From NCBI RefSeq assembly GCF_056746865.1, contig NZ_CM163382.1: DNA of 64,000 bases. The stretch is one strand, 5' to 3'. Positions 40,001 to 43,000 of this stretch are shown one piece after another (the stretch's first letter is position 1; every line of letters starts with the position of its first letter). The position numbers are program-made.

Positions 40001-43000
40001 TTCTTTTTAATAATCAACCTGATTATCTTAATTTTTTAAGAGCAATGGATGGATTCGAAGTTAATGGATTACGATTATTTAGCCTCTCGATTCCAGAACC
40101 TTCAGTTAAAAACCTTTTTACCGTAAATGAATTTTATAGAAATAATGATGATTTCATAAACCCTGATCTACAAGAACGGTTAGTGATCGGGGATGATAGC
40201 ATTTCAATATTTACTTATGACATTAAAAGTAACTTTTTTGAAATTAGAGATAATATTGGCACCGAAAATATATTCAGTTCGTTTAGTGATTTCTCTTCAT
40301 TCTTAAACGAAATCATGGACAGTTGTTCATAATAATCAAAAGGTAACAAAAATCATTGTAAACCATGCCATCTTTTTAGAGATTACCAGCAGAAAATTCC
40401 TTGTTCGAAACTTAGCAATGCAAGCTATGGAAAAACTTACAACGGAACTACACTCCTTAAGTGAGATGGACCGAAGACATGTAATCTCTATTTTAGCCGA
40501 AATAGCTAATGGCTATGATGATTTTAGTGACATGTTGATTTAGTTAGAACTTCACCCGAATCATAAGATTCTGATATCTTAAATAAGAAAATCCCGTTCG
40601 ACGTTCTGAAAAAGAAATCACAAAATATTAGCAGATACTTATTTCGTGACTGTATATTATCCGATGAACTTTTTTCAAAACCAGCATTTAATAATATATT
40701 TGACGAAGATGAACGCGTCTTTTCTCAAAGTATAACGCAAGAATAATAATATAACGATCAACAATAATATTTATTATAATTATGATTACTTATCACGACG
40801 CATTCGCGAAAGCGAACCATTACCTTGATGATGCAGATCTCGCCGTCGTCATTACTCTACATGGACGCTTTAGCCAGGGCTGGTATTTCTGTTTCGAAGC
40901 ACGAGAATTTCTCGAAACTGGTGATGAGGCCGCGCGTTTATCCGGTAACGCACCTTTTATTATTGATAAAGACAGTGGTGAAATTCATTCCCTTGGAACG
41001 GCAAAGCCGCTGGAAGAATATCTACAGGATTATGAAATAAAAAAGGCTACCTTCGGCTTGCCCTGACAATACGGCCCTCTTCCCACGAAGAGGGCCGCTA
41101 ACCTTAATACCCCGCCGTTAAATCATCCACCGAGCGCGGATCGGATGCACCGTACAGCTCACCGTCCGGCCCAACCATAATGCTTTGTGTACTGCCCATC
41201 GCCTCTTTCAGCGCCACTTTCTGACCTTTTGCTTCCAGCAGCTTGAGCGTATCCGGGCTAAACCCTTTTTCGACACGCAGCTCGTCCGGCAACCATTGAT
41301 GGTGGAAACGCGGTGCATTGGTCGCTTCAGCGACATTCATGCCATAATCGATGCTATTCACCACCATTTGCAGCACGGTGGTAATAATCCGACTCCCGCC
41401 AGGGCTACCGGTAACCAGCCAGGTTTTACCGTCTTTCACCACAATGGTTGGTGACATCGACGACAGCGGGCGTTTGTTCGGCCCGACCGCGTTGGCATCA
41501 CCGCCCACCAGCCCGTAAACGTTCGGTACGCCCGGTTTGGCGGAGAAATCATCCATCTGGTTATTAAGCAGAATACCGCTCTCGCCCGCGACAATGCCCG
41601 TACCGAAGGTGGTGTTCAGCGTATAGGTCACCGCCACCGCGTTGCCGTCTTTATCCACCACTGAGTAATGGGTAGTTTGATTACTCTCATAAGGCGCAAG
41701 CTTGCCGGGGCGAATTTCGCTGGATGGCTTCGCTTTATTGATATCAATTTGATCGGCAATAGATTTGGCATAGGCTTTATTGGTCAGCGCCTGCCACGGG
41801 ACTTTCACAAAATCCGGATCGCCAAGATATTCCGAGCGGTCGGCGTAGGCGTATTTCTCCGCTTCTGCCATGATTTGCATCGCATCGGCGCTGCCAAAGC
41901 CGTATTTCTGCATATCGAAGTTTTCCAGGATATTGAGGATCTGCACGATATGAATCCCACCGGAAGATGGCGGTGGCATCGAGTAAACCTGATACCCGCG
42001 ATATTCGCCGCTAATCGGTGTACGTTCGACCGCTTTATACGCCGCTAAATCTTCTTTAGTGATCAAGCCACCGTTTTTCTGCATCTCCTGAGCGATCTGC
42101 TCCGCTATTGTGCCTTTGTAGAATTCGTCCGGGCCGTTTTCGGCAATCATCTCCAGGCTCTTTGCCAGGTTCGCCTGCACCAGCTTGTCGCCCTTTTTCA
42201 GCGGCGCGCCCTCTTTCCAGAAGATAGCCTTGCTGTTTTCGTGATTCGGCAACACTTCGCTACCGTAGGTTTTGAGATCGTCAGCCAGCGCGTCATTAAC
42301 GATAAAACCATCGCGTGCCAGTTTAAACGCCGGCTGCACCACTTTATTTAACGGCATGGTGCCGTACTTCTCCAGCGCCAGCGAGAAACCTGCGACCGTA
42401 CCTGGCGTACCGGAGGCCAGATGCGAAGTGAGTGATTTTTTGCTGTCCGGGTTGCCCTGGTCATCGAGGAACATATCGCGGGTCGCTTTGGCGGGTGCCA
42501 TTTCGCGGAAATCGATAGCGGTGGTATTGCCATTTTTCGAGCGGATCAGCATAAAACCACCACCGCCCAGATTCCCTGCCTGCGGATGCGTTACCGCCAG
42601 CGCGTAGCCCACAGCCACGGCGGCATCAACGGCATTCCCGCCCTCCTTGAGGATATCCACCCCCACCTGAGTGGCAGTAGCATCTACAGACGCCACCATC
42701 CCCTGTTTCGCGCGTACCGGATGGAAGACATCTTCCTCCACGCCATAAGAAACAGGTGGCGGAGGAGGCGCGGCGGAGGCGCTAAAACAACTTCCTGAGA
42801 GCAGAGCAGCAATGGCCACCCGGCGTAAAAACGTCGGTTTTATCATCGTTATTCTCCAGAGATTAAGGGGCAACCCCAGCTAAGCCTGGTATATAACTCT
42901 GAATTAATCATCGTTTTGCCGGGAAGCGAGTAAACTTAAAGGATATCTTCAGAGGAGGATACGCGATGAAACGACTTCTGATTCTTACGGCACTCCTGCC

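Follow-up and report, generated by a model that had tools for sequence, protein, structure and literature searches.

yrhB of Escherichia coli: an orphan Imm35-family immunity gene, probably stranded by a toxin cassette swap at the yhhY-ggt site

Why does Escherichia coli carry the small gene yrhB at the end of an array of toxin and immunity genes, with no toxin of its own beside it? We addressed this question in a stretch of 64,000 nucleotides (hereafter the window; NCBI RefSeq assembly GCF_056746865.1, contig NZ_CM163382.1), in which yrhB closes a low-GC islet lying between the core genes yhhY and ggt:

40782..41066, plus strand: yrhB, an intact open reading frame (ORF) of 94 codons plus stop with an ATG start, encoding an Imm35-family immunity protein that is an orphan here

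A first-pass annotation of this DNA had speculated that yrhB is an orphan immunity-type gene. It correctly gave the coordinates, the identity of the gene and its place beside ggt at the islet's distal edge, and its speculation now finds support in an Imm35 profile match, in the toxin linkage of homologues and in the missing toxin. Our answer is that yrhB is very probably an Imm35 immunity gene whose cognate toxin belongs to the papain-fold Tox-PL1 or 'Gln_amidase' family (PF15644), and that a cassette swap stranded it. We hold the assignment of family and history with high confidence.

The encoded protein has 94 residues (10.6 kDa) and is acidic, with a computed pI of 4.7. It is the YrhB of E. 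coli. At least 1000 public contigs encode the identical protein, named 'YrhB family protein [Escherichia coli]', and matching DNA carries the yrhB annotation in RefSeq genomes. The first-pass annotation had proposed three checks on its idea: a profile search, a survey of whether homologues adjoin toxin genes, and a structure prediction. The profile search returned Pfam PF15567, 'Immunity protein 35', with an E-value of 4.4e-22 and a score of 78.5 bits (gathering cut-off 27.5). The match is full length: YrhB residues 5-83 align with profile positions 1-85 of 85. No further Pfam model matches at E<=1, and no NCBIfam model matches YrhB.

YrhB belongs to a large family. A profile search of a 1.84-billion-protein library found 1541 cluster representatives related to it at E<=1e-3. 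In an alignment of 33 Imm35 members reaching down to 30% identity, W34 is invariant and G33, G55, N56, P58, G72 and T73 are at least 90% conserved, and the window protein has all seven; G66 is near-invariant as well. YrhB also carries the Imm35 signature 'W, [ST]' given by Zhang et al. 2012 (PMC3482391), who tied Imm35 to Tox-PL1 and termed it a 'possible protease inhibitor'. Tox-PL1 is the present-day Pfam family PF15644, 'Gln_amidase', which a classification paper treats together with the Shigella deamidase OspI (PMC10318531). One 554-residue protein of the family (P0086) has three tandem Imm35 domains in a single polypeptide, a fused poly-immunity protein. The top representative match, a 7068-residue protein with 28 'Imm35 stretches' (P0075), was discarded as spurious: it is an FN3-like repeat protein, and the match was not reproduced with a broader hidden Markov model.

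Structure prediction gave a confident small alpha+beta domain. The AlphaFold2 model has a predicted local distance difference test score (pLDDT) of 91.8 and a predicted template modelling score (pTM) of 0.81, with predicted helices at residues 4-17 and 77-91 and predicted strands at 22-30, 33-40, 58-62 and 68-70. The modelled fold would thus be a helix packed on a four-stranded antiparallel sheet, followed by a C-terminal helix. A sequence search of the PDB found no match for YrhB. The sole fold neighbours of the model are PepSY/cystatin-like, and a Foldseek search of the PDB returned nothing at E<=0.001. Since YrhB combines the Pfam match, the 1541 relatives and a confident fold with a ratio of nonsynonymous to synonymous substitution rates (dN/dS) of 0.14-0.35 between Escherichia alleles, yrhB is a real gene and more than a chance ORF.

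The strongest evidence on its function comes from other strains, in which orthologues of yrhB occupy the same site with a toxin gene directly in front of them. In Escherichia fergusonii (L013) the upstream gene encodes a 383-residue protein joining an Hcp domain (PF05638, E-value 1.3e-11) to a Gln_amidase domain (PF15644, 5e-18). Its stop codon overlaps the ATG of a yrhB that is 81% identical to that of the window, and ggt comes next. An assembly labelled E. coli (L045, GCA_011937105.1) has the order gntR, yhhW, yhhX, yhhY, Hcp-Gln_amidase, Imm35, ggt, and here too the Imm35 gene starts on the stop codon of the Hcp-Gln_amidase gene. Several copies of the 383-residue protein bear E. coli names, and the protein is listed in 132 index blocks. 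Three Salmonella enterica loci (L037-L039) have a Gln_amidase gene that is truncated by the edge of the contig and that NCBI names Hcp. Its last bases lie on the start of an Imm35 gene with 71% identity, and ggt, yhhA and ugpQ come next. Across E. fergusonii, Salmonella and some E. coli-labelled assemblies, the same-site orthologues are 71-81% identical to YrhB. The toxin domain retains the Tox-PL1 signature NC...H...DxQ (signature as in PMC3482391), and its calculated pI of 10.4 complements the charge of YrhB. In every paired locus that we found, the partner is Gln_amidase and never HNH.

Comparison of these paired loci with the window locates the change that left yrhB without a partner. The Hcp-Gln_amidase proteins and YhhZ, the Hcp-HNH protein encoded in the window, are near-identical over their first ~205-219 residues and diverge completely afterwards. 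At the DNA level two features delimit the exchanged segment:

37263..37983, plus strand: shared module made up of the promoter region and the first ~219 codons (Hcp domain and linker), defined by blastn against L013 and L045
40778..40781, plus strand: distal junction, at which homology to L013 and L045 resumes 4 nt before the yrhB ATG

The shared module is 94.5% identical to positions 435-1155 of L013 by blastn. Positions 1-5657 of L045 correspond to window positions 32326-37983, placing the proximal junction at 37983/37984. The distal breakpoints coincide: L013 position 1645 and L045 position 6147 both correspond to window position 40778. A separate blastn comparison with E. coli genomes has homology starting at query position 546, which lies 5 nt upstream of the yrhB start codon. 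Between the junctions, the paired haplotype has 489 bp coding for the Gln_amidase domain, and the window has an HNH domain, yrhA, yrhD and an AT-rich spacer (about 1.46 kb) together with a later insertion of the insertion sequence (IS) IS2. In all likelihood, a cassette replacement removed the toxin segment precisely and kept the old immunity gene. The present arrangement (yhhZ, yrhA, yrhD, yrhB) has a C-terminal toxin domain of another family with an immunity gene of its own, and the haplotypes share the delivery part and differ by a toxin/immunity cassette with sharp breakpoints.

Other genera show yrhB homologues in the same displaced position. At the yhhY-ggt site of Citrobacter sp. FP75 (L015, 4448-5960), an Hcp with a YhhZ-like N-terminus (75% identity over 229 residues) carries a third C-terminal extension of ~100 residues with no Pfam match. 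An 86-residue ORF, likewise with no match, comes next, and beyond it lie a yrhB homologue with 70% identity and ggt. Erwinia rhapontici and Pectobacterium aroidearum have a CdiA-EndoU gene followed by its immunity gene, small ORFs and then an orphan Imm35 gene. Because Imm35 genes sit behind an Hcp with a third C-terminal domain in Citrobacter and behind CdiA-EndoU, we take yrhB to be the older, resident element of the site. As an observation in its own right, the Citrobacter extension and its 86-residue ORF are a candidate for an uncharacterised Hcp-ET toxin/immunity pair.

The association with Gln_amidase extends well beyond this site, as the survey of homologues showed. We scanned one genome per species with a close alignment as query, a design that reaches Enterobacterales and Orbales only, and obtained 21 informative loci. 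In eight of these an open toxin domain ends on the start of the Imm35 gene; the carriers are of CdiA type (Erwinia persicina, Pantoea, Gilliamella) and of Rhs type (Gilliamella). One locus (L026) has a full-length toxin pseudogene and one (L025) a short toxin fragment directly upstream of the Imm35 gene, and the remaining 11 have no toxin adjoining it. In Pectobacterium, a 68%-identical Imm35 gene overlaps by 4 nt the end of a gene for a 5,824-residue CdiA with TPS, Fil_haemagg_2, PT-VENN, DUF6862 and Gln_amidase domains. Imm35 also stands behind an orphan CdiA C-terminal (CdiA-CT) fragment in Pectobacterium (L005). Two of the three distant members that we checked (33-36% identity) directly follow proteins with a C-terminal Gln_amidase domain; in one distant pair, from a metagenome, an Rhs/YD-shell-Gln_amidase protein precedes a 36%-identical Imm35. 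Homologues behind Gln_amidase on CdiA or Rhs thus span 33-68% identity to YrhB. Because the same toxin-immunity module rides on type VI secretion system (T6SS) Hcp, on type V secretion system (T5SS) CdiA and on Rhs, it is by definition a polymorphic toxin cassette. Distances among the toxins correlate with those among the immunity proteins (Mantel r 0.89, p about 8e-4), a result that is driven largely by a Gilliamella cluster and confounded by shared ancestry, and we do not count it as independent evidence.

Three further observations arose from these loci. In L026 (positions 2015-2676), from a metagenome-assembled genome of Aeromonadaceae, the Gln_amidase sequence has three in-frame stops and has lost the catalytic His, and the adjacent Imm35 ORF is intact; at this locus decay has reached the toxin before the immunity gene, which endures. 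In the array at L005 (2310-5694), SymE_toxin genes of 78-79 residues on the opposite strand overlap the 5' ends of orphan CdiA-CT fragments. A 439-bp contig assigned to Tannerella forsythia (ATCC 43037 contig050, L034) codes for the C-terminal half of a YrhB that is 98% identical to the E. coli protein, and is almost certainly E. coli contamination of the Tannerella assembly.

Displaced toxin-immunity cassettes downstream of the main gene are established as the orphan cdiA-CT/cdiI and rhs-CT/rhsI modules. The yhhY-ggt site resembles them in having a new C-terminal domain and immunity cassette upstream and an older immunity gene kept downstream, and the Imm35 genes behind CdiA-EndoU in Erwinia and Pectobacterium, like the orphan CT/Imm35 module in Pectobacterium L005, repeat the pattern. 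It differs from them in two ways. Classical orphans usually keep a toxin fragment, whereas here removal of the toxin extends to a point 4 nt short of the immunity gene; and their carriers are CdiA or Rhs, whereas here the carrier is Hcp.

The Hcp version of such modules has also been described. As summarised in PMC6099711, the Hcp-ET clans of Ma et al. 2017 include a 'Papain-like peptidase' clan, Hcp-ET5/ETi5. To the extent that PMC6099711 and PMC6730261 set out these Hcp-ET/ETi effectors, the presumed ancestral module of the yhhY-ggt site is of their kind, with an immunity gene behind an Hcp that bears a papain-fold domain. The YhhZ of the window is an Hcp-HNH protein of Hcp-ET1 type, and its Hcp N-terminus is common to the papain-fold version. 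We infer that YrhB corresponds to ETi5. YrhB likewise agrees with the Imm35/Tox-PL1 pairs of PMC3482391 (PF15567, PF15644), in that it matches the profile from end to end and its orthologues follow the toxin domain. It departs from them in that the toxin partner is missing from the window, and inhibition by Imm35 is itself a prediction in that paper.

Taken together, these comparisons suggest the following history. In an older arrangement of the site, an Hcp with a C-terminal Gln_amidase domain, a T6SS effector of 'Hcp-ET5' type, would have been translationally coupled to yrhB. In the cytoplasm of the producer, the acidic YrhB would bind the basic toxin domain one to one and block it. In the lineage of the window, a cassette bringing an HNH nuclease domain, yrhA, yrhD and an AT-rich spacer would have recombined into hcp after codon ~219, deleting exactly the 489 bp of Gln_amidase coding sequence and leaving yrhB intact downstream, where it would now be transcribed from the spacer. 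The orphan would most likely have been kept as protection against Gln_amidase toxins from neighbours. Possible attackers are Escherichia and Salmonella strains that retain Hcp-Gln_amidase, or carriers of the domain on CdiA or Rhs. Whether YrhB still protects the cell today we judge to be evenly balanced.

Several points weigh against this account. yrhB has no cognate toxin or toxin relic in the window, and hence no partner here: tblastn with the Gln_amidase domains of Pectobacterium and E. fergusonii gave matches at chance level only, both in positions 37000-41200 and across all 64 kb, and we rejected the idea of a toxin relic. Nor was the domain found in any of 5426 complete E. coli genomes by blastn, a search sensitive to ~65-70% nucleotide identity that divergent copies would escape. 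That no toxin adjoins the gene is what one expects of an orphan, and says nothing about its homology to Imm35. The direction of the swap is deduced from the distribution of haplotypes and is not proven. The window protein carries Ala21 and Ser54, at positions that in close relatives are almost always occupied by Pro and Ala, respectively. Some alleles are pseudogenes, such as that of STEFF_1, which is interrupted by a stop at codon 42 and bears a pseudogene annotation, and a quarter of complete genomes are without the gene; yrhB is therefore dispensable. The searchable literature yielded no binding or neutralisation experiment for any Imm35/Tox-PL1 pair, and a different, chaperone-like activity has been published for YrhB.

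Much of this would also fit an alternative in which yrhB is a functionless relic: its toxin lost, selection gone in E. coli and the gene in slow decay. The cognate toxin is absent from the window and, at blastn sensitivity, from the complete genomes; there are alleles with internal stops or truncations; the window allele is substituted at two near-invariant positions; and the islet is eroding, because yhhZ itself has been broken by IS2 here. Selection argues the other way. The dN/dS range given above includes a value of 0.14 between two orphan E. coli alleles, and yrhB is under purifying selection. Full-length forms dominate among distinct YrhB sequences, with clusters of 1080, 361 and 237 members for the 94-residue forms against single-digit numbers to 42 for truncated ones, and the exact window allele is the one found on at least 1000 contigs. 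Attackers exist within the genus (E. coli-labelled assemblies and E. fergusonii) and in Salmonella, and the Citrobacter locus and two CdiA loci likewise keep an orphan Imm35 gene. We regard decay without function as possible, and clearly less probable than a retained immunity gene.

The distribution of yrhB shows how variable the site is. By blastn, the gene is present in 4067 of the 5426 complete E. coli genomes. In E. coli KE50, ggt follows yhhY after 60 nt, with yhhZ, yrhA, yrhD and yrhB all absent; given this empty site and the count above, yrhB is an accessory and not a core gene. In another E. coli assembly (L011, GCA_045573485.1, 8001-8339), yrhB is the single gene separating yhhY from ggt. 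This locus aligns with the window from 16 nt upstream of the ATG onwards, and the 96-nt upstream sequence is unrelated. The site thus occurs in five states: empty, immunity gene only, cognate pair, displaced orphan and IS-broken. The YrhB of L011 has an altered C-terminus (…KKLPSACP) and is called as 112 residues, the 3' end of its gene overlapping the end of ggt.

A second alternative, prompted by the published chaperone-like activity that is the main rival of the immunity reading, sees YrhB chiefly as a stress protein, small, very stable and chaperone-like, and its toxin neighbourhood as incidental or historical. Work by Ahn and colleagues reportedly covers growth of BL21(DE3) under heat stress, prevention of aggregation in vitro and the protein's use as a solubility-enhancing fusion partner. 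The title of Ahn et al. 2012, as cited in PMC10723866, speaks of a 'unique chaperone-like activity' of YrhB, and PMC6598250 lists or uses YrhB as an E. coli 'chaperone'. A role in stress would also agree with the listing of yrhB among cold-shock-stimulated genes with an H-NS-type 5' untranslated region (PMC7873864), and with a sigma-S holoenzyme site found upstream, in the yrhD-yrhB spacer of K-12, by SELEX (systematic evolution of ligands by exponential enrichment; PMC5493296). However, YrhB matches no chaperone family: its only Pfam match is Imm35, NCBIfam returns nothing and the PDB sequence search found no relative. The gene is an accessory one that some 25% of complete E. coli genomes lack, and the site is empty in KE50. 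Moreover, homologues at 33-81% identity are translationally coupled to one toxin family across three delivery systems, and an acidic, compact, stable domain could aid the solubility of a fusion partner without being a chaperone. The published activity does not establish the physiological role of YrhB, and we think it improbable that chaperone work is its main business. The first-pass annotation would have given up the immunity idea if homologues were never linked to toxins and an unrelated function had been demonstrated. The first of these is contradicted by the loci above; the second has a partial counterpart in the chaperone-like activity.

A third alternative, that yrhB is a second immunity gene for the HNH nuclease of YhhZ, could appeal to its place downstream of yhhZ on the same strand of the same islet and to the several immunity genes of some Hcp-ET loci (PMC6730261), but we rejected it as very improbable on gene order and on loci that have yrhB without yhhZ: in intact loci it is yrhA, not yrhB, that overlaps the yhhZ stop, L011 has yrhB without yhhZ or yrhA, Citrobacter has another Hcp C-terminal domain, the partner in all pairs found is Gln_amidase and never HNH, and the literature ties Imm35 to Tox-PL1.

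We return to yrhB as an orphan Imm35 immunity gene, and ask how it might act. The closest experimentally dissected analogue is StbD-CT/StbI (together with Cpe1; PDB 8ssm). StbD-CT, a toxin of the C39 peptidase family, cleaves GyrB and ParE, and StbI binds an exosite on it (bioRxiv 10.64898/2026.05.07.723447). The likeness has limits: the toxin is of the C39 family and not Tox-PL1, StbI is a five-stranded sheet protein, and the 8ssm immunity chain is not among the top fold neighbours of YrhB. OspI of Shigella, a glutamine deamidase of UBC13 (PDB 3B21/3W30), is linked to PF15644 in PMC10318531. It is a type III effector directed at host cells and has no immunity gene, and in this it differs from the antibacterial domains paired with Imm35.

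A more ambitious version of the immunity reading is tentative, and we lean against it as a whole. It would make orphan yrhB cross-protective armour in three quarters of E. coli against Gln_amidase toxins delivered on Hcp, CdiA or Rhs, with Imm35 as a broad PepSY/cystatin-like inhibitor of papain folds and the chaperone-like behaviour as a by-product. If it held, yrhB would turn from a K-12 gene without known function into a way of approaching antibacterial cysteine hydrolases or deamidases of an uncharacterised class, and the attackers countered would be gut neighbours: other Escherichia, Salmonella and Citrobacter.

Much of the groundwork was already known: the place of YrhB in Imm35 (Pfam), the link between Imm35 and Tox-PL1 (2012) and Hcp-ET5/ETi5 (2017). 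We found no paper that mentions YrhB by name in connection with Hcp-ET5, or that sets out the five yhhY-ggt haplotypes. What is new is the history of the locus and its haplotypes, a small addition and no new kind of system. It is useful for annotation all the same. yrhB is still listed among the uncharacterised genes of E. coli K-12, and the comparative evidence points to a concrete role for it, as immunity partner of the Hcp-ET5/Tox-PL1 papain-fold toxin. A deep-learning predictor of Enzyme Commission numbers called YrhB a 6-carboxytetrahydropterin synthase (QueD), a call that PMC12506659 refutes on genetic grounds; the Imm35 assignment is an independent reason why that label is wrong. The yhhY-ggt site, with five states in one place, is also a clean textbook example of turnover at a polymorphic toxin locus.

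The remaining features of the islet and its borders in the window are these:

36603..37091, plus strand: yhhY, GNAT acetyltransferase (Pfam Acetyltransf_1), a core gene and the proximal border of the variable site
37327..38439, plus strand: yhhZ, tssD-like, of Hcp-ET1 type, an Hcp domain fused to an HNH nuclease domain
38424..39754: IS2, 1331 bp, with orfA at 38470..38880 and orfB at 38838..39743 (Pfam HTH_Tnp_1 and rve; RefSeq matches named IS2)
39838..40332, plus strand: yrhA, intact, 164 residues (NCBIfam NF038335 'YrhA family', E-value 2.8e-37)
40333..40777, plus strand: AT-rich spacer of the HNH/yrhA cassette, 31% GC
40418..40543, plus strand: yrhD, a 41-codon ORF within the spacer
41073..41096: GC-rich hairpin with a 10-bp stem, GGCCCTCTTC-CCAC-GAAGAGGGCC, between the convergent yrhB and ggt, read from the sequence
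41104..42846, minus strand: ggt, a core gene and the distal border of the variable site

YhhZ matches Pfam T6SS_HCP (2.1e-11), HNH weakly, and NCBIfam TssD (2.7e-34). The window copy has 370 residues against 392 in an intact locus (L001), since IS2 cuts the gene at codon ~366 and adds five foreign C-terminal residues. The element inserted into the 3' end of yhhZ, is flanked by a 5-bp target duplication, GTAGG (38419..38423 and 39755..39759), and separates yhhZ from yrhA. The replacing toxin has thus itself been disabled in the window, and the yrhA and yrhB ORFs are intact. yrhA is 97% identical to the copy in L001, where, uninterrupted, it overlaps the yhhZ stop by 4 nt; it is the presumed cognate immunity gene of the YhhZ HNH domain.

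The spacer probably supplies the present promoter of yrhB, a view that leans on the published SELEX site in K-12. It contains three sigma-70-like hexamer pairs (40672..40786), a number not above chance (the scan found 4 against 3.2 expected). YrhD matches neither a Pfam nor an NCBIfam model. In the set of loci retrieved, the yrhD spacer (449 bp to yrhB) was seen only with the yrhA cassette (the window and L001), and yrhD may be a gene, a fragment of another immunity gene or mere promoter-bearing spacer.

At the distal end, yrhB is the last gene before ggt, to which it is convergent across a gap of 37 nt. The hairpin between them is likely a shared yrhB/ggt terminator; a consensus terminator scan, with output at chance level, did not call it, as it has no T-run. 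ggt also neighbours the site in E. fergusonii, Salmonella and Citrobacter.

Base composition changes along the islet. GC fractions are 0.34 for yhhZ, 0.28 for yrhA, 0.31 for the yrhA-yrhB spacer, 0.45 for yrhB, 0.55 for ggt and 0.51 for the whole window; yrhB is intermediate and less AT-rich than the remainder of the islet. Across haplotypes the values are 43-45% for yrhB, 37-40% for the cognate toxin domain and 28-32% for the HNH cassette, differences that are suggestive only as a sign of where the modules came from.

The core flanks of the site (window 32326-45779) reach no more than about 95-98% identity to the E. coli references used for comparison (L045, L001 and L002), and yrhB alleles within 'E. 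coli' differ by a synonymous divergence (dS) of about 0.2, high for this species. Together these values suggest old allelic lineages or recombination at the site. The same locus carries IS1 in K-12-type strains and IS5 in other strains in place of IS2, and is a repeated target of insertion sequences.

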